DNA from: Gammaproteobacteria bacterium
GTDB taxonomy: Bacteria > Pseudomonadota > Gammaproteobacteria > QNFN01
Assembly (NCBI GenBank): GCA_009937385.1
Contig: JAACFL010000021.1
Location: forward strand, 1-39,686
Reading direction: 5' to 3'
Length of the DNA stretch: 39,686 bases
Positions within the stretch are counted from its first letter, which is position 1; every line of letters starts with the position of its first letter. A program made the position numbers and the translations under genes. Under the pieces are notes generated by a model, which searched no databases, was not told the origin of the DNA, and saw only the letters and a list, made by a program, of their open reading frames with translations. Positions 10,083 through 37,382 of this stretch are shown here, in pieces.

Positions 10083-10558
10083 GCCGGGCGGTCCACTACG
10101 ACGCGGTGATCGCGAGCCCGGTCGGCCCGCTCGGCCTGGCGCAGGACGGCGACGCGCTGGCCCGGGTCGCCTTCCTCTCCTCGCGCCATCGGCTGCGCCC
10201 CCCGGCCACGCCACTGCTCCGCGAGGCGGCCGCCCAGCTCGACCGTTACTTCACCGACCCCGACTGGCGCTTCGACCTGCCGCTCGGCGAGCACGGCACG
10301 CCGTTCCAGCGCCGGCTCTGGGCCGAACTGCGCGGCATCCCGCGCGGCGAGACGCGCAGCTACGGGGCGCTGGCCACGCAGCTCGACTCGGGCCCGCGCG
10401 CGGTCGGCGGCGCATGCCGCGTGAATCCGCTGGTGATCGTCACGCCGTGCCACCGGGTGGTCGCCGCGCGCGGCGGGCTCGGTGGCTTTGCCGGCGCGAC
10501 TGCGGGCCGGCCGCTGCAGACCAAGCGGTGGCTGCTCGACCACGAGGCTCCACGGTGA
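10079..10558 (+). CDS. ogt: methylated-DNA--protein-cysteine methyltransferase
   Basis: 159 aa with the active-site motif PCHRVV and a GETRSYGALA helix-turn-helix region. The GTG start overlaps the upstream stop (GTGA). Confidence 0.9.
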   Translation: MSRAVHYDAVIASPVGPLGLAQDGDALARVAFLSSRHRLRPPATPLLREAAAQLDRYFTDPDWRFDLPLGEHGTPFQRRLWAELRGIPRGETRSYGALATQLDSGPRAVGGACRVNPLVIVTPCHRVVAARGGLGGFAGATAGRPLQTKRWLLDHEAPR

Positions 10559-11454
10559 CCGCCGAGGGTGACCGCGCACTGATCGATGCCTTTCTCGATG
10601 CGCTGTGGATGGAGCGTGGCCTGAGCGCGAACACCCTCAACGCCTACCGCACCGACCTGGCCGGTTTCGCCAAGTGGCTCGGGGAGCACGGCGGAGGGCT
10701 GGCCTCGGCGCGACGCGACCAGCTGCAGGGCTACCTCGCCTGGCGTGTCGGCCAGGGCGCGCGACCACGGACCACCGCGCGGCTGCTCTCCTCGCTGCGC
10801 CGTTTCTACCGCCACCTGGTGCGCGAGGGCCGTCGCAACGACGACCCCAGCGCACGCATCGACGCCCCACGCCTCGGACGCCCGCTGCCGAAGACGCTGA
10901 CCGAGGCCGAGGTCGAGGCGCTGCTCGCAGCACCCACCGTCGCCACCCGGCTCGGCCTCCGCGACCGCGCAATGCTGGAGCTGCTCTACGCGACCGGGCT
11001 GCGTGTTTCGGAGCTGGTCGGCCTGCGCGTCGAGCAGGTCAACCGCCAGCACGGCGTGCTGCGCGTGGTCGGCAAGGGCAACAAGGAGCGCCTGGTGCCG
11101 CTCGGCGAGGAGGCGCTCGCCTGGCTCGATCGTTACCTGGCCGAGGCGCGTGGCGACCTCAACCGCGGCCATGCCGACCCACACCTGTTCCTGACCGCAC
11201 GCGGTGGCCCCCTGACCCGCCAGGCCTTCTGGCACCTGATCCGCCGCCACGCGAAGCAGGCCGACATCCGCCATCCACTCTCCCCACACACGCTGCGCCA
11301 CGCCTTCGCGACCCACCTGCTCAACCACGGCGCCGACCTGCGCGTCGTCCAGCTGCTGCTGGGTCACAGCGACCTCTCCACGACCCAGATCTACACCCAC
11401 GTCGCGCGCGAGCGCCTCAAGCAGCTGCACGCCGAGCACCATCCCCGGGGCTGA
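10555..11454 (+). CDS. xerD: site-specific tyrosine recombinase XerD
   Basis: The GTG at 10555 overlaps the ogt stop. The sequence includes LIDAFLDALWMERGLSANTLNAYRTDL..., catalytic HTLRHAFATHLL and LLGHSDLSTTQIYTH. Confidence 0.92.
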   Translation: MTAEGDRALIDAFLDALWMERGLSANTLNAYRTDLAGFAKWLGEHGGGLASARRDQLQGYLAWRVGQGARPRTTARLLSSLRRFYRHLVREGRRNDDPSARIDAPRLGRPLPKTLTEAEVEALLAAPTVATRLGLRDRAMLELLYATGLRVSELVGLRVEQVNRQHGVLRVVGKGNKERLVPLGEEALAWLDRYLAEARGDLNRGHADPHLFLTARGGPLTRQAFWHLIRRHAKQADIRHPLSPHTLRHAFATHLLNHGADLRVVQLLLGHSDLSTTQIYTHVARERLKQLHAEHHPRG

Positions 11455-11586
11455 ACTTGTCGCGGTCTGCACCACGGGCGCTGTAGGCCGTGGCTGAATT
11501 TCCTGTCGCACAGATCACCACGCCGACGGATTTGGAACCGCCGAAATGAATGCCGAAACGGCTTTATCTTGCTGTTTATATTCGAA

Positions 11587-11615
11587 TTAAATGTTGAATC
11601 GACGTTCTGTTAAAG
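11587..11615 (+). promoter_or_regulatory. candidate sigma70 promoter for the GGA-rich sRNA (TTAAAT-17-TTAAAG)
   Basis: AT-rich patch in an otherwise GC-rich region, with -35 at 11587-11592 and -10 at 11610-11615. The hexamers are weak, so the placement is tentative. Confidence 0.3.
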
Positions 11616-11621
11616 CGCTTG

Positions 11622-11857
11622 CTCGTGCCATTTATCAGGATTGCAGGATCCTCGCCGGGGGGCCACATTCAGCGCCCCGGAGCCATGCCGGGACCGCCAA
11701 GGAAGGCGGTGCCACGCCAGGGAGGGCGCGGCAGGGCGGCAGGACGCCGCCGGACTCGCCAGGGGTGATCCTGGGCATCGGCCGCAAGGACGCGGGAGAT
11801 GCTGGCCAAGGGAGGACCAGGCGAACGCGGGCGACCTACGGGTCGCCCGTTTTTTTT
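11622..11857 (+). ncRNA. CsrB/RsmZ-class CsrA-sequestering sRNA candidate
   Basis: About 13 GGA trinucleotides occur in roughly 235 nt. Five GC stems carry A(N)GGA loops (11694-11709, 11715-11728, 11735-11751, 11782-11795, 11802-11820). Two CAGGAT motifs sit at the 5' end and an intrinsic terminator at the 3' end. The 5' end is approximate. Confidence 0.65.
11828..11857 (+). terminator. rho-independent terminator
   Basis: 9-bp GC stem cgggcgacc / ggtcgcccg with loop TACG, followed by T8 (11850-11857). Confidence 0.85.
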
Positions 11858-11899
11858 GGAGTTCAGCTGCTTGAGCTGGCACCAGCCGATAGAATTTTA

Positions 11900-11915
11900 G
11901 TATCGTTATTGATAC
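11900..11915 (+). promoter_or_regulatory. inverted repeat GTATC-N6-GATAC, candidate HicB operator
   Basis: Seen directly upstream of the hicA ATG in an AT-rich promoter-like stretch. HicB-type antitoxins commonly autoregulate through such palindromes. Confidence 0.3.
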
Positions 11916-11923
11916 CATTATAG

Positions 11924-12172
11924 ATGCGCACAATTGCCGACATCGTCGAGGCAATGAAGGCCAATCCGCGAGGGATCAAGTTCAAGGATCTTGCGAGGGT
12001 GTGCGATGCCTGCTTCGGTGAACCGAGGCAACGAGGAACCAGCCACCATGTCTACAAGACGCCGTGGGCTGGCGATCCCAGGGTCAATATCCAGTCCGAC
12101 AAGGGAATGGCCAAGGCATACCAGGTCAAGCAGGTTCTCAAGGCGATCGAAAAGCTGGAGGCAACGAGATGA
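11924..12172 (+). CDS. hicA: type II toxin-antitoxin system HicA family toxin
   Basis: 82 aa. The ...RGTSHHVYKTPWAGDPRVNIQSDKGMAKAYQVKQVLKAI core matches the HicA (YcfA-like) GSHH/KxP pattern. An alternative start at 11954 has a GAGG Shine-Dalgarno. The stop overlaps the hicB start (ATGA). Confidence 0.75.
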   Translation: MRTIADIVEAMKANPRGIKFKDLARVCDACFGEPRQRGTSHHVYKTPWAGDPRVNIQSDKGMAKAYQVKQVLKAIEKLEATR

Positions 12173-12492
12173 GTGACCGTTACAGCTATCGTGTCATCTG
12201 GTCGGAAGCCGACCAGGAACACGTCGGGCTATGCACTGAATTCCCTTCGCTCTCCTGGCTGGCAGAGACACCAGAAAAAGCTCTGCGAGGCATCCGAAAG
12301 GTGGTCTCTGGCGTGGTCGAGGATATGCGTGCAAATGGTGAGACGCCGCCCGAACCGCTCTCGACCCGCAAGTTCAGCGGAAAATTCCAGGTTCGGGTGA
12401 CACCGGATATCCACCGTCACCTGGTCATGGAAGCAGCCGAGGAAGGGGTGAGCCTCAACCGGCTGGTAAGCGCACGCCTGGCGCTTGGTTGA
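12169..12492 (+). CDS. hicB: type II toxin-antitoxin system HicB family antitoxin
   Basis: 107 aa. It has an N-terminal HicB fold (YSYRVIWSEADQEHVGLCTEFPSLSWLAETPEKAL) and a C-terminal ribbon-helix-helix-like segment (SGKFQVRVTPDIHRHLVMEAAEEGVSLNRLVSARLA). Confidence 0.8.
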   Translation: MSDRYSYRVIWSEADQEHVGLCTEFPSLSWLAETPEKALRGIRKVVSGVVEDMRANGETPPEPLSTRKFSGKFQVRVTPDIHRHLVMEAAEEGVSLNRLVSARLALG

Positions 12493-22202: not shown

Positions 22203-22394
22203 ATGCTGATATTGACCCGCCGGGTTGGAGAAACCCTGATGATCGGCGACGAGGTGACGGTGACGGTGCTCGGGGTCAAGGGCAACCAGGTGCGCCTCGG
22301 TGTCAATGCACCCAAGGATATCGCCGTGCACCGCGAAGAGATCTACGAGCGGATCAAGCGCGAGCAGAGCGGCGAGGCGCCCCAGGAGAGCTGA
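22203..22394 (+). CDS. csrA: carbon storage regulator CsrA/RsmA
   Basis: [51 protein letters not shown] is essentially the family consensus. Confidence 0.98.
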
Positions 22395-22822: not shown

Positions 22823-25800
22823 CTAGCGGCAGGTCAACACCGTACCGTTGACCTCGACCTGCCCCTCTATCAGAGGCTGCTTCTCGAGCAGCGCGACCAT
22901 ATCGATAGGCTCGTCGATGGGCGGCGTGTCCGATGTGGTCGGCTCTTCACCCGGGGTTTGGGCCGTTTGCGTTTCATCGAGCGGCACGTTCGCCTCGACT
23001 GTCTCCTCGGTGATCGTCGTCGACGTCGGATCGGTCGGGTTCGTGGTGGTGGTCGACTGCTGGACCACGGTGCTCACCGTACCTATGGTCGTGGTCGTCG
23101 TTGGTGGTGGAGACGTCGGTGATGGAGACGTCGGTGGTGGTGACGTCGGTGGTGGAGATGGTGGCGGTGCAATCGTACCCGCCACACCCACCAGTCCGGT
23201 GGAGATGATGTTTCCGATCCCTGAGACCGAGGCCGTGGTCGCGGCGAGGAAGTTCTGCCCGCCGATGTTGAGACTTCCATTCTGGCCTATCGCGATCCCG
23301 CCGCCGAACGCGCTGCCGCCGACCATGATCGACGTGCCCGGGAAGCGGCTGAAGTGTCCACTCTTGGTGAAGTAGGTCGTACCGGCCAGCTGTGGCGAGG
23401 GGACGAGATTCTCCACCGCGATCGAGCGCAAGCCATCAAATGGCAGCATCTGCACGACCACGTTCGGGTTCACCGTCCCGGGCACCGGGTCAGTTGACGG
23501 AAGCCAGGTGCCGATCGACTGGTTGAGCGTCAGCGTGTCGGACCTGAGGTAGAGGTAGTCGCCAAAGAAATCGACAAAACCGAGTGAGATGCCGTTGGGC
23601 GCGACCAGTGCAAGGTTCGGGTCGAGCGATGACGACGGGATGGCACCCAGGGTGAACAACTCGGTGATCAGGGCCGAGTCGCCGATTCCCGGCCCACCGA
23701 CGACCGGTGTTGCGACACCGTTGTGAACGATCAGGTCGAGATTGCCGAAATCGATCGTGTCGCCAGCGAAGGCGCTTAGTGCCCCGGCATCGATCAGGCC
23801 GTTGCCCGCCGCGACGGAGCTCAGGATACGGCCTCCCGCACTGAGCTGCGTCTGGCCGGTGGAGACGAGGCTCACCGCGCCCAGGGAGCCGCCAAGTGTC
23901 ATGTCGGTACCCGCGTCGATGGTGAGAGTCGCTGCATCCATCGTCGCGCTGATGATGGACACCCTGTCGGGCGTTAGCACCGTTATATTCGTCGCGCTGA
24001 AGGTCGGTGGCGACGGGACACGTCCGAACTGAATCAAACCGCCTGCCTGGACGAAGAGGTCACCACTTGCGGTGAGGCTGTCCCGCATCGTCAGTTGACC
24101 ACCCACACGGAACTCGGCGTTTCCAGCGATTTGCATGGAAGCTGGATTGACCACGTTGAGGGCGCCATTAGTCTGGAAGAGGACATCGGATCCAAAACTC
24201 GATCCAGTGAAGCGTAAAGTCGCCGCAGAGGCGGTGTTGGTGACGTCGATGAGCCCCGGAGTCGATCCGATCTCGAAGCTCGCGGTCCGGGTGTTGCCGA
24301 GCACCGCCCCGCCCGCGGTGACGCGGATGCTGCCGTTCAAAGCGGTTGCGGACCGAAGGAAAAGGTCGCCCGGCGCCTCGATCGTCAGATCGCCGCTTCC
24401 CGCCGTAGCGGACATCGAACTGGCGGTGAAATTCCTCAGGATGGCGCTTCCACCAGGGGCATCTGCCAGAAGGCGGTTCGAGACGACCTGCGCACCCGAG
24501 CCGATAACAAGGCCCGTGTCGCCACGAAGCGACACGGTACTCGAACGACTGCCGACTGCGATCACATCATGATTAACGGCCAAGCCGGCTCGCGAGTAGA
24601 TCCGCACTTCGGCAGAACCCGAACTGCCGCCGTTCTTGGTGCTCGCCTCAATGTCACCGTTGATATTCACGGTGTCACCGAGAACGCTCACAATTGCTTT
24701 CTGGACATTCGTCAACACACCACCAGCCAAGTCGGTTCTCGCGATGAGTTCCGCCCCACTGGCGAGGAAAATGTCGCCTCCGGAGAAATTCCCGCCCGTC
24801 ACCTGCAGAATCGCCTCGTTGTCTCCCTCTGCTTGCGCTAATGCCGTTACGTATCGAGCCGCGCTCCCCTCGATCAGGGGCGTGAAGGGTTTGTTGAGTT
24901 GCAGTGCGCCTGTCGCATTGAGGAACACGTTGGCATTCCCGGTCCCATCCAGACCGGCATTAGCGAAAATCATTGGCAGGTTGAGGCTCCCCGAGCCTAC
25001 GATCAGGTCGCCACCCGTGGCGCGTATATCCACGCTGGCAAGGCGCCCACCAATGGCCCCGACAAACCCTACAGCACCGAATGCGTCGAAGAGCTGAGAG
25101 CGGAATGGTGACCTCAGCGTGACATCAGACCCACTTATCGTGATGCTTGCGCTACCGTTGCCGCTGGGGAAGGACGGAAACTCAAGACCGGTGATCGTTG
25201 CACTACCCGAGGCTATGGTGCGCTCGACGAAACAAAGCGGCCCACCGTAACTGCACCCTCCGAGCGGGATTGGAAAGTCACCCGCGACGATCCCGCCACC
25301 GTTCCAAAGGAACTGGCCATTCTGAGCATCGAGATTGATACTCGCGGAATTGCCACCTCCGGCAAACGCCGAGACATTACCCACATTGATCCCATTTGCG
25401 ACCGCTGAAACCGTGGCATCACCTGAGGTGGCTCGCGCAGAGATATTGAATGCCGAGATCGAGCCAGACAGGCCATCGAGCGTGACGGTGGCCATCGCGT
25501 TCGTGCCAAAAGCACTTGCAGAAGCGCCACCACTGGCCATTTGGATGTCATTGCCCTGGATATCGACGCTGGCATTGGCCCCGTTTCCCCAACTCCTAGC
25601 AGTAACGAGCCCATTTCCGCGATAGCTGCCCAGAGAGCCCGCATCAATCGAAATGCTCTTCGTGTCGACCACGCTGGGTGAAGAGAAAAAATCGCCAGTG
25701 GCCACACGGCCATTGACCTGGATTCCATTTCCACTGAGTGTGATATTCGTAGGGCCAAGGAAATTTTCTGCTTGAATGTTTCCATCCACAAACAGAAACC

Positions 25801-27520
25801 CCGACGTTGCGATCAGTGAGAAGTTATGGGCTGCCGTGGTAGCTACCTGGCTGAGTATGTTGCCATTGATCTGAATATCCGTACCACGCACCGAACCCAC
25901 GACCACGTCGCCATTGAATCCAGCGAGGATATTTACCAGCCCGTTGACGTCGATAGCAGCGGGCGCGCCACCTTCCTCAAAAAGTTGAATAATGCCGGAC
26001 ACATTTGGGTCGTAGTTAAAAATGTATGGTGATCCAACTCCCGTGCCACAGACACCACCAGAGCCACAGTTGACCGGTGAACCGCTGATGTCGAAGATGG
26101 GCTGCAAGAAGGGAAAGGTCGAACTGGTCGACACCGTCCCAATTCCGAGGATCAATGCCCCAGCACCGGTGGCGTCAAGTCCGTTGGTTAAATCGGTCCC
26201 GATGATGTCGTTATTGGCTACGAGCACGACGTCGGTGTTGTTGTTGAGATAGCCCTCAATCGTCTGCTCATAGACGTAGGAAATGCTCGCGCCGGTATCC
26301 AAGAACGACGAGCCGCACGAGGGACTGCAGGCTGCGTTCCCACGAATAATAATAGTTGTGGGATCGATCAGTAATGTGCCACCAGAGCCGACTTCTACCT
26401 CGCCTCGCATATTGAATTTCGTGTGACCACTGACCTCGACGAAGCCCCCCTGACCGGTCGAGCCACCCTCAGTCGTGATGCTGGCCAGCGATTCGATGTC
26501 GAGAACATCCTGCGCGACAAGCCGAATGGTGCCACCGTCGCCCGAGCCGCTGCCCTGTGCTGTGAGCTCGGCCCCATCACTGACCGTAATGTCGTTGGTC
26601 GACGTGACGAAGACCTTCCCACCATCCGCGTTTTGTTCCCCGGCATTGGCATCGACGTCACCCGCAAGCATCACGTTGCCGCCAGAGCCACCGAGGTAGA
26701 CGATGCCGTCCCTCTCCTCAACGGTCCTGGCCTGGATCAACCCCTCGTGGTTGACCGCCGTCGGCAGCAGGTCGCCCTGCACCTTCGCCGTCAGGAAGAT
26801 CCGTCCGCCGTCGGCATACAGCTCACCGGTGTTCTCGACTCCGGCGATCTCCGTCAGCGCCTCGCCGTCGATCGCGAAACTGATCAGGCCATCACCACCC
26901 AGATCGAGCGTCACCTGCTGGCCCGAGGCCATGACGATGTCGCCGAGGTGCGCCTCGATCAGGCCGTGGTTCGCGACGCCGTCACCGGCGAGGATCACGT
27001 AGCCGCCGTCGGCGTTGATGGTGCCGTCGTTGACGACGGTCGCCGGATCACGGCCCTCGACACGCGCGAAGGTATAGCGGCCCGTCATGAAGTCGTCGTT
27101 GGATATGCCGAACGTCGTGGCCAGAAGGCCCGCAACGTCGATCACCGCATTGGGGCCGAAATAGACCCCGTTCGGGTTGACCAGGAAGATCTGCCCGTTG
27201 GCACTCATCTGACCCAGCAACTGCGACGGGTCGTTGCCGACCACGCGGTTCAGTGTCACCGAGGTCGTGCCGGGCTGCACGAACTGCACGTACTCGTTGG
27301 TACCGATCGAGAAGCTCTGCCAGTCGATCGCGCTCTTCGCGGTCGACTGGGTGATCGTGGTCTTGGTGCCCTGCTGCGCGATCGACGCGCTGCCCGCCAC
27401 CACCTGGCCGCCCTGCGGTGCGGCCAGGGCCCAGCCGGGCACGGCCAGCGAGGTGATCGCCCACACCCCACGACGCACGGCCATGGTGAGTGGCGTCTCG
27501 TGCCTGCATGGTTTGCGCAT
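22823..27520 (-). CDS. filamentous hemagglutinin-like two-partner-secretion exoprotein (TpsA family)
   Basis: The ATG at 27520 (GGGGAG Shine-Dalgarno) gives 1565 aa. A signal peptide is followed by a TPS domain (LNRVVGNDPSQLLGQMSANGQIFLVNPNGVYFGPNA), a long Gly/Ala/Ser/Asn-rich beta-helix-type repeat region and a Pro/Thr/Ser-rich linker near the C-terminus. GC content is visibly lower than in the flanks. Confidence 0.85.
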   Translation of the reverse strand: MRKPCRHETPLTMAVRRGVWAITSLAVPGWALAAPQGGQVVAGSASIAQQGTKTTITQSTAKSAIDWQSFSIGTNEYVQFVQPGTTSVTLNRVVGNDPSQLLGQMSANGQIFLVNPNGVYFGPNAVIDVAGLLATTFGISNDDFMTGRYTFARVEGRDPATVVNDGTINADGGYVILAGDGVANHGLIEAHLGDIVMASGQQVTLDLGGDGLISFAIDGEALTEIAGVENTGELYADGGRIFLTAKVQGDLLPTAVNHEGLIQARTVEERDGIVYLGGSGGNVMLAGDVDANAGEQNADGGKVFVTSTNDITVSDGAELTAQGSGSGDGGTIRLVAQDVLDIESLASITTEGGSTGQGGFVEVSGHTKFNMRGEVEVGSGGTLLIDPTTIIIRGNAACSPSCGSSFLDTGASISYVYEQTIEGYLNNNTDVVLVANNDIIGTDLTNGLDATGAGALILGIGTVSTSSTFPFLQPIFDISGSPVNCGSGGVCGTGVGSPYIFNYDPNVSGIIQLFEEGGAPAAIDVNGLVNILAGFNGDVVVGSVRGTDIQINGNILSQVATTAAHNFSLIATSGFLFVDGNIQAENFLGPTNITLSGNGIQVNGRVATGDFFSSPSVVDTKSISIDAGSLGSYRGNGLVTARSWGNGANASVDIQGNDIQMASGGASASAFGTNAMATVTLDGLSGSISAFNISARATSGDATVSAVANGINVGNVSAFAGGGNSASINLDAQNGQFLWNGGGIVAGDFPIPLGGCSYGGPLCFVERTIASGSATITGLEFPSFPSGNGSASITISGSDVTLRSPFRSQLFDAFGAVGFVGAIGGRLASVDIRATGGDLIVGSGSLNLPMIFANAGLDGTGNANVFLNATGALQLNKPFTPLIEGSAARYVTALAQAEGDNEAILQVTGGNFSGGDIFLASGAELIARTDLAGGVLTNVQKAIVSVLGDTVNINGDIEASTKNGGSSGSAEVRIYSRAGLAVNHDVIAVGSRSSTVSLRGDTGLVIGSGAQVVSNRLLADAPGGSAILRNFTASSMSATAGSGDLTIEAPGDLFLRSATALNGSIRVTAGGAVLGNTRTASFEIGSTPGLIDVTNTASAATLRFTGSSFGSDVLFQTNGALNVVNPASMQIAGNAEFRVGGQLTMRDSLTASGDLFVQAGGLIQFGRVPSPPTFSATNITVLTPDRVSIISATMDAATLTIDAGTDMTLGGSLGAVSLVSTGQTQLSAGGRILSSVAAGNGLIDAGALSAFAGDTIDFGNLDLIVHNGVATPVVGGPGIGDSALITELFTLGAIPSSSLDPNLALVAPNGISLGFVDFFGDYLYLRSDTLTLNQSIGTWLPSTDPVPGTVNPNVVVQMLPFDGLRSIAVENLVPSPQLAGTTYFTKSGHFSRFPGTSIMVGGSAFGGGIAIGQNGSLNIGGQNFLAATTASVSGIGNIISTGLVGVAGTIAPPPSPPPTSPPPTSPSPTSPPPTTTTTIGTVSTVVQQSTTTTNPTDPTSTTITEETVEANVPLDETQTAQTPGEEPTTSDTPPIDEPIDMVALLEKQPLIEGQVEVNGTVLTCR
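23103..23162. repeat. four imperfect 15-bp tandem repeats inside the TpsA-like gene
   Basis: ggtggtggagacgtc / ggtgatggagacgtc / ggtggtggtgacgtc / ggtggtggagatggt. On the coding strand they encode the PPTSP-type linker. Confidence 0.85.
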
Positions 27521-27867
27521 GGTGCTCCCCGACTGAGCGGATGGTGTGAATCTTGCCTTGGCTTCGACAAGCGTGGGGCCATAGTTGGTGTAATCGATGC
27601 ACCCCAGGCAGGTGCTGATATGAGTCAACTCATGACCAGTTAAGCGGTCAAGCCCTCGTGAACTGTCTTGTTGCGACTTGCCCTGCGACGAGCGGCTCAA
27701 CCAATGCGTATCGGCGCGATCTGCCAACACGCTTTCTCCGCACGACACCAGCGCGGCTGACACTCCATCGAGTGTTACGCCGCGCAGTGGCGATCAGATC
27801 ACCGCGTTATGGATCATGGCCCGCAAGACAAGGGAGACCGGGGCAGCGGCGCCTTCAGGCAATCGGC

Positions 27868-30046: not shown

Positions 30047-30574
30047 TCAGTCGACCTTGACCTTGCGTTTGCTCGGCTTGTCGAGCTTCGGCAGGGTCAG
30101 TTCGAGCAGGCCGTCGCGGAAGCTTGCCTTGGCGCCGTCGACATCGACCCCACTCGGCAGGCTCAGGCTGCGCGAAAATGCACCCTGCGAGATCTCGCAG
30201 CGGTGGTAGTCGCCCTGCTCGTTCTGCTTCTCCTGGCGCGTGGTCGCCTTGATGGTGACCGCGTCGTCGGTCACGGTGACGTCGAGGTCGTCCTTCTCGA
30301 CCCCGGGCAGCTCGGCACGCACCAGGACCTCGGTATCCCGGTCGATGACGTCGACGCGGGGCATGCGCCCGGCGAACGGCATCGCCATCTCGCCGATGGC
30401 CGGCCAGTCCCACTGCTGGGGCCGTAGCCAGCCGCGTGGAAAGAAGCTGTCGAACAGCTTCTCCATCTCCTCGAACGGGCTCGGCAGGTGATCCTGCGGC
30501 CTGGCGCGGCTCGCGACCGCCTGCTTGCCCTTGCGGATCTTCGGTTCCGATGCGTCTCTGGTCCTGGTTGTCAT
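30047..30574 (-). CDS. Hsp20/alpha-crystallin family small heat-shock protein
   Basis: The ATG at 30574 has a GGAGGAGAG Shine-Dalgarno. The alpha-crystallin domain reads PRVDVIDRDTEVLVRAELPGVEKDDLDVTV...GAFSRSLSLP...ASFRDGLLELTLPK. Confidence 0.9.
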   Translation of the reverse strand: MTTRTRDASEPKIRKGKQAVASRARPQDHLPSPFEEMEKLFDSFFPRGWLRPQQWDWPAIGEMAMPFAGRMPRVDVIDRDTEVLVRAELPGVEKDDLDVTVTDDAVTIKATTRQEKQNEQGDYHRCEISQGAFSRSLSLPSGVDVDGAKASFRDGLLELTLPKLDKPSKRKVKVD

Positions 30575-30818
30575 GGGGCTCTCCTCCATCGCCTCTTCGG
30601 GGCTCGAAGTCCTTGTTCCGGACACGGCCCAGGTTCTCCATGCACTCCGCACGGGATATCCTCGCGACGCCCCGTGCTTCCTCACTCAAGATAGGTCGTG
30701 CCGACGCGCGGGGTGATCCGTAGGATTACGTAACGCCGTTGCCGGAGAGGCGTGCCAGAATCCTTATCAAACGCAGTCCGCTGCGAGGCCGGCGGCCCCT
30801 TCGACAACCTGCTCAATC

Positions 30819-32521: not shown

Positions 32522-33474
32522 ATGCCGAGCGACCATGCCAAGCCACGCAGGCGCGTCGTGCTTGGTGTCGCGGTACTGCTTGCCGTGGCCGTGGTGCTGG
32601 TCGCCGCCCAGCGCATCGACGCCCTGCTGCGTGACTCGACCGTCGCCACCAACCAGGCCTACCTGAAGGTGGCGGTCGAGGACCGTCACGTGGTCATCGA
32701 GCAGTTCCTCGAAGAGCGCCTCAACATGCTGAAGGTGCTGGCGCGCGCGCCGGGCAACGCCCAATCGCTGGCCGCGGGCCAGGTCACGCCGCTGTTCGTC
32801 GAACTGTCCGCGGTCTATGCCGATTACCTGTCGTTCTCGGTCTACACCCAGAACGGCCAGCTGCTCGGACTCGCCGGCGAGGAGGCGATCGACAGCGACA
32901 CCGTGATCGACCAGGAGTGGTTCGCCACCACGCTCGACCTCGGAGAGTACGTCAGCCCCCTCTACCTCGGGCCCAACCAGATCCCGACGCTGGCCATGGC
33001 GGTGCGTGCGACGACCGAGGCCGGCGGCCTGGTGATGCGCGCCACCCTGTCACTGGCCACCCTCAACGCCCATCTCGCGGAGATGGTGGCCGGCGAGAGC
33101 GGCGGCACCTACATGGTCGACCCGATCTCCGGCAGCTACCTGTCGCACCCCTACTTCGGTGGCAGGCCGCTGCAGGAGCGCAGCCCCCGCTTCAGCTGGG
33201 GCGAGAAGCACTTCCACGTCGACTACGACGAGCACGGCATCGAAGAAGTCGACGCCTCGCTCGCCATACGCGCCGACGGCACGCCGGTCATCGAGGCGCA
33301 CTGCTGCACCCGCCAGGGGAACTGGCTGGTGGTCGTCGAACGCGAACTCGATGAACTCCTGTCGGCCGACCGCGCGCTGCGCAACCGGCTGAGCGCGACC
33401 TTTGCCATCGCCCTGCTGGTGCTCGGCGTGATCGCAGCCGCCGCCTGGCGCCTGGCACGAGACCCGGAGCGCAC

Positions 33475-33478
<4 letters not shown>
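32522..33478 (+). CDS. membrane-anchored periplasmic Cache-like sensor domain protein without an output domain
   Basis: 318 aa with a TM helix at each end and roughly 250 aa of mixed alpha/beta periplasmic region between them (Cache-like by eye). Its stop overlaps the GTG start of the downstream kinase (GTGA). Confidence 0.6.
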
Positions 33479-36039
<2,561 letters not shown>

Positions 36040-36122: not shown

Positions 36123-36199
36123 GCGCCCGTAGCTCAGCTGGATAGAGTACCTGGCTACGAACCAGGTGGTCGGAGGTTCGAATCCTTCCGGGCGCGCCA
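36123..36199 (+). tRNA. tRNA-Arg (anticodon ACG)
   Basis: Acceptor stem GCGCCCG/CGGGCGC, D-arm AGCTCAGCTGGATAGAGT, anticodon loop CTACGAA, T-arm GGAGGTTCGAATCCTTC, encoded CCA. Confidence 0.95.
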
Positions 36200-36618: not shown

Positions 36619-36636
36619 TGTCAGCTTTCGCTTACA
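36619..36636. promoter_or_regulatory. GacA/UvrY-box-like palindrome TGTCAG-N6-CTTACA
   Basis: It matches the published consensus TGTAAG-N6-CTTACA at 11 of 12 specified positions and lies 76 bp upstream of the first small ORF. Confidence 0.45.
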
Positions 36637-36711: not shown

Positions 36712-36975
36712 ATGGGTACCAGCCTCAGCGACTACGTAAACATGAGCGACCAGGCGCTCACCGCCTACCTGTTCGGGCTTGCAGTCGGCTGCCCACTCGG
36801 ACTCGCGAAACACGAGTGCCCGCTGCTCGAACTGCAGCAGGAGAACCTGACGAAGGTCTATGATCATCTGGTGAGCCTCGATCGCGAAACGAAACTGCGT
36901 CTCGCCGCGCGCCACTACGGCTGCGCGGAATGGAAGGAAGGCCGGCTGCCCGCGTTCGCGACGGGACCGGGCTGA
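36712..36975 (+). CDS. hypothetical small Cys-Pro motif protein (paralog 1)
   Basis: 87 aa with GC3-biased codons. It shares the pattern Y-x2-M-x4-L-x-A-x-LFGL-x-V-x-CP-x-G-x4/5-CPL...KLRL-x-AR-x3-C with the next ORF. No family recognised. Confidence 0.6.
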   Translation: MGTSLSDYVNMSDQALTAYLFGLAVGCPLGLAKHECPLLELQQENLTKVYDHLVSLDRETKLRLAARHYGCAEWKEGRLPAFATGPG

Positions 36976-37000: not shown

Positions 37001-37258
37001 ATGTCTGTTTGCCGCCTCGCCAACTACCGGCACATGGATGAGAACCAGCTCGATGCGATGCTGTTCGGGCTGTCGGTGGAGTGCCCTTTCGGCTGCAAGG
37101 GCGATTGCCCGCTGACCCCGCTGCGCAGCAAACCGCTGCGCGAACGCTTCCGGGAAATCAGTTCGATGAGCCACCCCGGCAAGTTGCGCCTGATGGCGCG
37201 GCTCGTGGCCTGCTACCAAAACTTCGAGGCGCAGAATATGGCACTGCAAAATACGTAG
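37001..37258 (+). CDS. hypothetical small Cys-Pro motif protein (paralog 2)
   Basis: 85 aa with GC3-biased codons, about one third identical to the upstream ORF by eye. The start region AAGGACGGACAGGATG carries three GGA motifs. Confidence 0.65.
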   Translation: MSVCRLANYRHMDENQLDAMLFGLSVECPFGCKGDCPLTPLRSKPLRERFREISSMSHPGKLRLMARLVACYQNFEAQNMALQNT

Positions 37259-37267
37259 ATTTACGAA

Positions 37268-37296
37268 TTGGCGCGCTGCAGCATCGAAGGTAGTAT
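37268..37296 (+). promoter_or_regulatory. candidate sigma70 promoter (TTGGCG-17-TAGTAT)
   Basis: The hexamers and 17-nt spacer were read directly. It lies immediately downstream of the paralog 2 stop codon and upstream of the GGA-hairpin region. Confidence 0.4.
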
Positions 37297-37302
37297 CGAG
37301 TA

Positions 37303-37382
37303 CAAGGTAAGGATACGCGGAACCCCGACAGGACGTCGGCACACAGGGAATAGCCCGGCAAGGATGCCGGGCTTCGTGTTTC
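37303..37382 (+). ncRNA. short RsmY/RsmZ-like GGA-hairpin sRNA candidate (or GGA-rich 3' UTR of the small-ORF transcript)
   Basis: Five GGA motifs occur in about 80 nt. Hairpin ccgac-AGGAC-gtcgg spans 37325-37339. Terminal hairpin agcccggc-AAGGAT-gccgggct spans 37352-37373 and is followed by TCGTGTTTCT. Confidence 0.5.
37352..37382 (+). terminator. terminator-like hairpin with an AAGGAU loop
   Basis: 8-bp stem with a U-rich but interrupted tail. Confidence 0.5.

Follow-up and report, generated by a model that had tools for sequence, protein, structure and literature searches.

A predicted multi-hairpin small RNA between xerD and mutS as a candidate CsrA decoy in an uncultured gammaproteobacterial lineage

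The xerD-mutS locus

The stretch of DNA analyzed here, called the window, is 39,686 nucleotides of contig JAACFL010000021.1 from an uncultured gammaproteobacterium (assembly GCA_009937385.1). Between the convergent genes xerD (10558-11454, + strand) and mutS lies a GGA-rich element, which a first-pass annotation of the sequence had placed at 11622-11857 and proposed as a CsrA-titrating RNA. The element lies within a 469-nt gap that extends from xerD to an 82-aa gene; this gene and hicB together span 11924-12492 (+). The hicB product has a Pfam HicB match, and the 82-aa gene, which is in the hicA position, has no Pfam match. The csrA gene, which encodes the presumed protein partner, is located 10 kb from the element at 22203-22394 (+). 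Its identification in the first-pass annotation is borne out, as the 63-aa product has a Pfam CsrA match of 90.5 bits and contains L4 and R44. Comparison with diverged relatives indicates that the element is a real, conserved, stand-alone non-coding RNA gene with a promoter predicted from the alignment, and its function is probably the sequestration of CsrA/RsmA.

The GGA content of the interval is strongly asymmetric. The + strand of 11622-11857 carries 12 GGA trinucleotides (13 if 11858-11860 is counted) as against 2 on the - strand. A sliding 236-nt window has a mean of 2.9 GGA with a standard deviation of 2.0, and 11622-11857 is the + strand maximum of the whole stretch. The several-fold enrichment estimated earlier is therefore correct with respect to the genome background, where it is approximately 4-fold; over local composition it is approximately 1.7-fold. 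Dinucleotide-preserving shuffles of the interval contain 7.3 +/- 1.8 GGA, and 12 or more occur in 0.85% of shuffles.

Promoter, transcript ends and upstream region

A scan for consensus promoters found none in front of the element, because the -10 sequence CACATT is weak compared with TATAAT. The promoter was derived from the alignment instead. The TTGC of a putative -35 element (TTGCAG, 11641-11646, +) and the CA-A-T of a putative -10 element (CACATT, 11664-11669, +; family consensus CA[C/G]A[T/G]T) are invariant in all nine aligned sequences. The spacer between them is exactly 17 nt in each of the nine, and its sequence varies freely. The pattern TTGC-17-CA-A-T appears to be the signature of a sigma70-type -35/-10 pair, and it places the transcription start near 11676, give or take 3 nt. 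With a 3' end at the T8 run, the predicted small RNA extends from 11676 to 11857 (+) and is approximately 182 nt long. Its counterparts are 248-250 nt long in three relatives (L092, L094 and L136) and approximately 232 nt in a fourth (L099), because these lineages carry hairpin insertions of their own.

This start shortens the RNA of approximately 235 nt that had been proposed. Two CAGGAT motifs (11635-11640 and 11643-11648) had been assigned to its 5' end. They are not conserved, the corresponding sequences being CAGCAT and CATGGC in L093, and the second overlaps the -35 element. For these reasons, the first 54 nt of the original interval are most likely promoter rather than RNA. The first hairpin described in the first-pass annotation spans the promoter spacer and the -10 element, and hence belongs to promoter DNA.

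The fixed promoter pattern also bears on whether the hairpins are a separate gene at all. They could instead form a structured 3' untranslated region of xerD or a terminator cluster between convergent genes, stopping transcription and stabilizing xerD mRNA with no function in trans. The position of the element between convergent genes, the strong terminator at its end, and a promoter that is predicted and has a weak -10 are all compatible with such an arrangement. However, TTGC-17-CA-A-T at fixed spacing separates xerD from the hairpins, and a terminator has no need of four invariant GGA loops that are kept while the stems around them change. In addition, xerD and mutS are only 10 nt apart in a relative with 72% MutS identity (L096), so the gene pair does not require such a region. 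We regard this explanation as improbable.

A second conserved block is located upstream of the promoter, at 11469-11501 (+), 13-47 nt past the xerD stop codon. It is kept in all nine aligned sequences, and its flanks diverge. Within it, at 11482-11499, approximately -194 to -177 from the predicted start, the sequence TGTAGG-CCGTGG-CTGAAT resembles a GacA/UvrY box. The equivalents are TGTAAG-CCCTGG-CTGAAT in L093 and TGTAAT-CCCTGG-CTGAAA in L092 and L094. The match to TGTAAG-N6-CTTACA is 8 of 12 positions in the window, 9 of 12 in L092, L093, L094 and L136, and 7 of 12 in L099. The distance from the box to the -35 element is 156-159 nt in five lineages and 135 nt in L099. The intervening linker diverges freely in sequence; it is AT-rich and contains a conserved TATCTTnCTGTTTwTA core (alignment, 11540-11625).

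Transcription of the Pseudomonas rsmX, rsmY and rsmZ genes requires an 18-bp GacA site, TGTAAG-N6-CTTACA, which is located at -75 in rsmY and at -196 in rsmZ (PMC4950607). In rsmZ, an A+T-rich region bound by MvaT/MvaU or IHF lies between the GacA site and the promoter (PMC4950607). A conserved block near -190 followed by an A+T-rich linker of constrained length appears to be the same layout as that of rsmZ, in which the P. aeruginosa upstream activating sequence at -196 precedes the MvaT/IHF-bound region (PMC4950607). Whether the element is under GacA-type control is, in our estimate, an evenly balanced question.

Hairpin structure

The 11676-11857 segment has a predicted folding energy of -102.5 kcal/mol (z = -4.4). 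Single-sequence folds of three diverged members have the same plan and z-scores of -4.3 to -4.9. From 5' to 3', this plan consists of a 5' hairpin, SL1, SL2, SL3, a single-stranded GGA, a variable middle part, SL4, a variable GGA hairpin and the terminator. RNAalifold proposed long-range pairs in addition; these were rejected as poorly supported, and local hairpins were preferred.

The 5' hairpin SL0 (CCCGG-AGCCAUG-CCGGG, 11676-11692, +) is replaced by two hairpins in L092, L094, L136 and L099. SL1 (11693-11710, +) has the stem CCGCC/GGCGG and the hexaloop AAGGAA. All of its alignment cells are paired, its loop is A[A/G]GGA[A/G] in every sequence, and the loop has an unpaired probability of 0.92-1.0. 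SL2 (11711-11732, +) is an 8-bp stem with the hexaloop AGGGAG and shows a compensatory pair change in relatives, where one G-C pair becomes A-U in three sequences; an A.C mismatch in the window is a G-C pair in relatives. SL3 (GGCGGC-AGGAC-GCCGCC, 11735-11751, +) has an invariant stem and a pentaloop in which only the last base varies (C, A or G). Directly 3' of SL3 is a single-stranded GGA (11752-11754, +) with an unpaired probability of 0.7-0.9; it is present in five of seven lineages and lost in L094 and L099.

The variable middle part contains SL5 in the window (CCAGG-GGUGAU-CCUGG, 11759-11774, +). Its loop has no GGA, and it is absent from L092-type sequences. The middle pair of SL5 is A-U in the window, G-C in L093 and U-A in L098. 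SL4 (11776-11801, +) consists of an inner stem CCGC/GCGG with the hexaloop AAGGAC and an outer stem CAUC/GAUG. Its loop is A[A/G/U]GGA[C/A/G] in all sequences with an unpaired probability of approximately 1.0, and one stem pair is C-G in L094 and U-A in L092. The SL6 region (CUGG-CCAAGGGAGGA-CCAG, 11802-11820, +) is variable. A GGA is always present there, and the structure is not strictly kept, the counterparts in relatives being GGC-(A/C)GCAGGAA-GCC or CGC-GGGA-GCG.

The first-pass annotation had listed five GGA hairpins, and all five are found at the positions it gave. Four of them, SL1 to SL4, belong to the minimum free energy (MFE) fold, display GGA in the loop and are conserved. The fifth, at 11802-11820, does not appear in the MFE fold, and its conservation is limited to its type. 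The RNA ends in the strong intrinsic terminator with a run of eight T residues that had been described (11827-11857, +), whose hairpin (11827-11850) has a UACG loop and a stem of ten pairs, eight of them G-C, rather than nine. All alignment cells of the terminator are paired, and two of its pairs show double-sided changes among relatives, for example A-U to G-C.

The GGA motifs in the SL1 to SL4 loops have an unpaired probability of approximately 1.0 in all seven full-length orthologs, and variation within A(N)GGA(N) is confined to the N positions. One to three further GGA motifs are accessible in each of the seven, and GGA motifs overall are approximately twice as accessible as the average base. 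CsrA sites are repeats of CAGGA(U/A/C)G in hairpin loops or single strands, mostly hexaloops, and the consensus obtained by in vitro selection (SELEX) is RUACARGGAUGU (PMC7652899). The loop contexts of the element, C-AAGGAA-G, C-AGGGAG-G, C-AGGAC-G and C-AAGGAC-G, conform to CA(N)GGA(N)G and fit this consensus (PMC7652899).

Conservation and covariation

Ortholog loci were obtained by a graded search for MutS homologues. Two more (L112 and L136) were added by a metagenome pattern scan; only these two of its 56 matches are members, and most of the others are Lys/Glu/Gly-rich coding repeats. The element is present at the xerD-mutS position in seven diverged lineages with MutS proteins 83-98% identical to that of the window. 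L112 is close to the window, and L136 resembles L094. MutS identity is 92% in L093, 92% in L098 (a locus with the 3' half only), 85% in L092, 84% in L094 and 83% in L099. The gap in approximately ten same-species contigs from metagenomes and metagenome-assembled genomes (L081-L091) is 98-100% identical and thus uninformative for covariation, and contig L100 ends before the region. The nearest named organisms, at 66-69% MutS identity, are Ectothiorhodospiraceae bacterium 2226, Endothiovibrio, Thiohalomonas, Thioalkalivibrio and Natronospira. Among 80 reference genomes, the XerD relatives, at most 73% identical, have no such element 3' of xerD, which is immediately followed by dsbC, fdxA or other genes. 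GGA peaks after xerD in these genomes were rejected, being coding sequence such as dsbC or fdxA. The element at the xerD-mutS position thus appears to belong to a narrow clade.

The computational checks proposed in the first-pass annotation all favored its reading, and in orthologous xerD-mutS regions the GGA loops are kept and the stems undergo compensatory change. With the local-hairpin model, 91-94% of alignment cells are paired, compared with 31-57% when the partners are slid by one to three columns. Double-sided pair changes number 5-6, compared with 0-2 in the slid controls, and in 500 column shuffles neither the covariation score nor the number of double-sided cells was ever as high as observed. 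The pairing of SL4 is under-counted at 74-80%, as a one-base register shift is corrected neither by MAFFT nor by the covariance model. A covariance model built from the alignment, R1, scores the members at 124-224 bits. It detected no further copy in the window, and its scores did not exceed 13 bits in 565 kb of related, unselected DNA or in the XerD loci of the reference genomes.

The pattern of change is not that of a coding sequence. A small protein-coding gene might be supposed, since open reading frames (ORFs) run through the region at 11591-11923 (+) and 11610-11954 (-), and the public annotation of L092 calls a gene there. Open frames are nevertheless expected at 70% G+C, and Pfam has no match for the overlapping ORFs. 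Relatives differ by indels of 20, 2, 38, 1 and 1 nt, which would destroy any frame. Variable columns are distributed 25/30/30 over the three phases, so the third-codon-position periodicity that would indicate a coding region is not seen and there is no bias in codon phase. A coding function is very unlikely. The gene called in L092 (12506-13057, -) would encode 183 aa, lies over the small RNA ortholog and overlaps the end of mutS; it has no Pfam match, and the high G+C content most likely gave rise to a spurious call.

The hicAB genes directly follow the element on the same strand in the window, which could suggest a cis-acting leader or regulatory RNA of this toxin-antitoxin pair. Yet a strong terminator separates the element from hicA. 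Moreover, hicAB follows the terminator only in the window and L093, and the element is intact without these genes in L112, L098, L092, L094, L136 and L099. Such a role has hardly any likelihood. The hicAB pair itself (the 82-aa gene and HicB) is an insertion polymorphism in 11858-12492, immediately 3' of the small RNA terminator.

Comparison with known Csr/Rsm RNAs

At gathering thresholds, Rfam models identify only two tRNAs in the window, and the element is unmatched. In a permissive search, the best E-value in the window belongs to PrrB/RsmZ (RF00166). This match aligns the whole model to the element with 17.3 bits as against a gathering threshold of 44 (E = 0.083 in a 471-nt search), and SL3 aligns with the UCGCAgGAaGCGA hairpin of the RsmZ model. 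The L092 ortholog has its best match with RsmY (RF00195), at 21.9 bits as against a threshold of 57; the element of the window gives no RsmY match. No CsrB, CsrC, RsmX or other clan CL00106 model was listed at E <= 10 for the window or L092, with overlapping matches of the same clan collapsed to the best one. Within Rfam, the element thus appears to resemble the Csr/Rsm clan alone. The lineage-specific family proposed in the first-pass annotation agrees with these sub-threshold scores. The element is a new sequence family of a well-known kind of RNA, outside the curated Rfam families.

RsmZ of Pseudomonas shares several properties with the element. Both have multiple hairpins, penta- and hexaloops of the AAGGAC/AGGAC type with C-G closing pairs, some single-stranded GGA and a Rho-independent terminator. 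The upstream layout described above is a further likeness, as is the adjacency of mutS, since the Pseudomonas rsmZ region contains rpoS, fdxA and mutS (PMC4353343). On the other hand, the element is 182-250 nt long, whereas RsmZ is approximately 120-135 nt, and its stems are longer and much more G+C-rich. Its upstream box agrees with the GacA site at only 7-9 of 12 positions, and its upstream neighbor is xerD. Neither rpoS nor fdxA was found near the element in the window, so that mutS is the only shared part of the rpoS-rsmZ-fdxA(-mutS) context, and this adjacency may be a coincidence. An argument from fdxA synteny is weak, as fdxA occurs near xerD only in Steroidobacteraceae-type loci, where mutS is missing. 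Because of the low score and the differences in size, stems, box and neighbors, common descent with RsmZ is not shown.

The remaining members of this functional class are less similar. RsmY and RsmX (clan CL00106) have repeated loop GGA motifs and a terminator like the element, but RsmY is approximately 118 nt long with its GacA box at -75 (PMC4950607, PMC4353343). CsrB and CsrC of the Enterobacteriaceae, which are activated by BarA-UvrY, sequester CsrA by repeated CAGGA(U/A/C)G in hairpin loops (PMC7652899). CsrB is larger than the element, with many more repeated sites and no sequence similarity to it. A literature search within one library found no link between Csr/Rsm RNAs and this lineage.

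A small RNA of this kind could act differently, either as a base-pairing regulator or as a decoy for another RNA-binding protein, and conservation and structure by themselves do not identify the ligand. However, what is both conserved and accessible is specifically the CA(N)GGA(N)G loop, and its repetition, at least four times, is the signature of CsrA binding (PMC7652899). There is no long conserved single-stranded seed, and the only Rfam resemblance is to the Csr/Rsm clan. We therefore consider another mode of action unlikely, and CsrA sequestration the probable one.

A second GGA-rich RNA and a canonical GacA-type box

A search for GacA boxes identified one near-canonical site in the window, TGTCAGCTTTCGCTTACA, at 36619-36636 (+) with one mismatch. 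The box is located 77-94 nt upstream of two paralogous small ORFs of approximately 87 and 85 aa, both of which have no Pfam match. The first probably starts at an ATG near 36713 and extends to 36975, and the second occupies 37001-37258; tauE is next. The small ORFs are conserved in relatives with TauE proteins 88% and 76% identical. The box is kept in L157 and L158 (TGTCATCCCTGGCTTACA) and in L161 (TGTCAGATTTTGCTTACA), and it is missing in L160. It would be unusual for protein-coding genes to be preceded by a GacA box.

Between the second small ORF and tauE is a second putative GGA-rich RNA of approximately 78 nt (~37303-37381, +). Its predicted promoter has a -35 element TTGGCG (37268-37273), a 17-nt spacer and a -10 element TAGTAT (37291-37296), conserved as TTGGCG and TAnnAT. 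The RNA contains a single-stranded AAGGAUAC, a CCGAC-AGGAC-GUCGG hairpin (AGGAY across relatives) and CAGGGAA. Its terminator (37352-37373) has the loop AAGGAU, which is A(A/U)GGAU across relatives. The RNA is kept at both 88% and 76% TauE identity, and in the 76% relative the terminator stem changes from GCCCGGC/GCCGGGC to GCCCAAC/GUUGGGC, a compensatory change. In size it is more similar to RsmX and RsmY than the xerD-mutS element is; the Rfam RsmY model gives it only 9.7 bits.

Two CsrA decoys, a long one and a short one, are therefore probably encoded in the window, a situation shared with many Gammaproteobacteria. The conserved near-canonical site indicates that the lineage uses a canonical GacA-type box, and together with the second RNA in the same window it suggests a Gac/Rsm-type circuit. 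The second RNA and the box strengthen the decoy interpretation of the xerD-mutS element. By comparison with this box, the degenerate one at 11482-11499 is the weaker GacA candidate.

Proposed function and significance

The following mechanism is proposed for the xerD-mutS RNA. Transcription would proceed from the weak sigma70-type promoter (-35 TTGCAG, 17 nt, -10 CACATT), which is probably activator-dependent. An activator, GacA/UvrY-type or other, would bind the conserved block near -185, and the AT-rich linker would allow the DNA to bend. SL1 to SL4 would present CsrA sites in the form of A(N)GGA(N) loops with C-G closing pairs. One or two single-stranded GGA motifs and the variable 3' GGA hairpin could provide extra sites, for approximately 5-7 binding sites in total and room for approximately 2-3 CsrA dimers per molecule. 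Accumulation of the RNA would draw CsrA off mRNA leaders and relieve CsrA-dependent translational control.

Several observations weigh against this interpretation or parts of it. The Rfam scores are far under the gathering thresholds, and the element is not a member of any curated family. Its stems have 5-8 G-C pairs, in contrast to the four or fewer favored in SELEX, and very stable stems may disfavor CsrA binding (PMC7652899). The covariation results are from approximately seven independent sequences of a narrow clade, in which most stem pairs are invariant, and the structure that was evaluated was derived from the same sequences. The element is absent at this position from L096, where the 10-nt gap mentioned above separates the genes, and from L095 (70% MutS identity), where other genes follow mutS. 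The upstream box has a good left half-site and a poor right half-site, making it a poor palindrome, and it was missed by the GacA-box search at three or fewer mismatches. GacA control of the element is uncertain because of its 7-9 of 12 match and the much better box elsewhere in the window.

A more specific proposal is that the element is a deeply diverged ortholog of rsmZ, with the ancestral location beside mutS, the far-upstream activator site at approximately -190 and the AT-rich bending region. Its partners would be the RsmX/Y-sized sponge at ~37303-37381 and the canonical GacA box before the small protein genes. We hold this proposal to be doubtful. If it is true, the Gac/Rsm circuit, including the layout of the rsmZ promoter, predates the split of the Pseudomonadales from this uncultured lineage related to sulfur oxidizers. 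A further implication would be that in this lineage a protein-coding operon is under the direct control of GacA, and that the main sponge responds to another activator or to a degenerate site.

CsrA is a master switch at the post-transcriptional level. Its decoy RNAs are unknown in most lineages beyond the model genera, since their rapid divergence puts them out of reach of existing models, and here the current Rfam models overlook what appears to be a clear case. The alignment and covariance model offer a starting point for the annotation of CsrA antagonists in an uncultured clade of gammaproteobacteria. A long sponge, a short sponge and a GacA-type box in one 40-kb window lead to testable hypotheses on how the circuit is wired. 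The element is of an expected kind. It leaves the understanding of the Csr system unchanged and would not surprise a specialist.

Other GGA-rich sequences and neighboring features

GGA-dense sequence also occurs at an Hsp20 gene. On the - strand, a stretch at ~30461-30720 was considered as a second copy of the sponge and rejected, as it is the leader and N-terminus of Hsp20. The leader and start of this gene (30575-30720, -) have 13 GGA in 236 nt, which is as dense as the xerD-mutS element, with the motifs GAGGAA, GAGGAU, GGAACAAGGAC and a GGAGGAG immediately 5' of the ATG. This could be a CsrA-controlled leader or merely a purine-rich ribosome-binding region.

An unrelated group of metagenome contigs (WBZ*) contains a series of AGGGA-loop hairpins (L104, 240-420, +; also in L150, L155 and L108). 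The hairpins are CGCC-AGGGAG-GGCG, GCGCC-AGGGAG-GGCGC, CCGUC-AGGGAA-GACGG and CCAGGGAUGG. The series comes after a terminator-like hairpin in DNA of lower G+C, and R1 scores it at 26-28 bits in loci that had been pre-selected by the search pattern. It may be another uncatalogued CsrA decoy.

Upstream of the small ORFs and their GacA box, a dCache protein is followed by an 854-aa sensor kinase with HAMP, PAS, HisKA and HATPase domains (32522-36039, +). The kinase has no receiver or Hpt domain match and does not look like GacS/BarA. Elsewhere in the window, 22823-27763 (-) encodes a two-partner-secretion exoprotein of 1646 aa that contains a TPS domain. A tRNA-Arg gene (36123-36196, +) is followed by two direct repeats of approximately 120 nt that extend to ~36500. 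A terminator hairpin precedes each repeat, and the last part of each is a copy of the tRNA 3' end (..CTCCTTCCGGGCGCGCC). The repeats have the appearance of tandem attachment sites left behind by elements that integrated at the tRNA gene.

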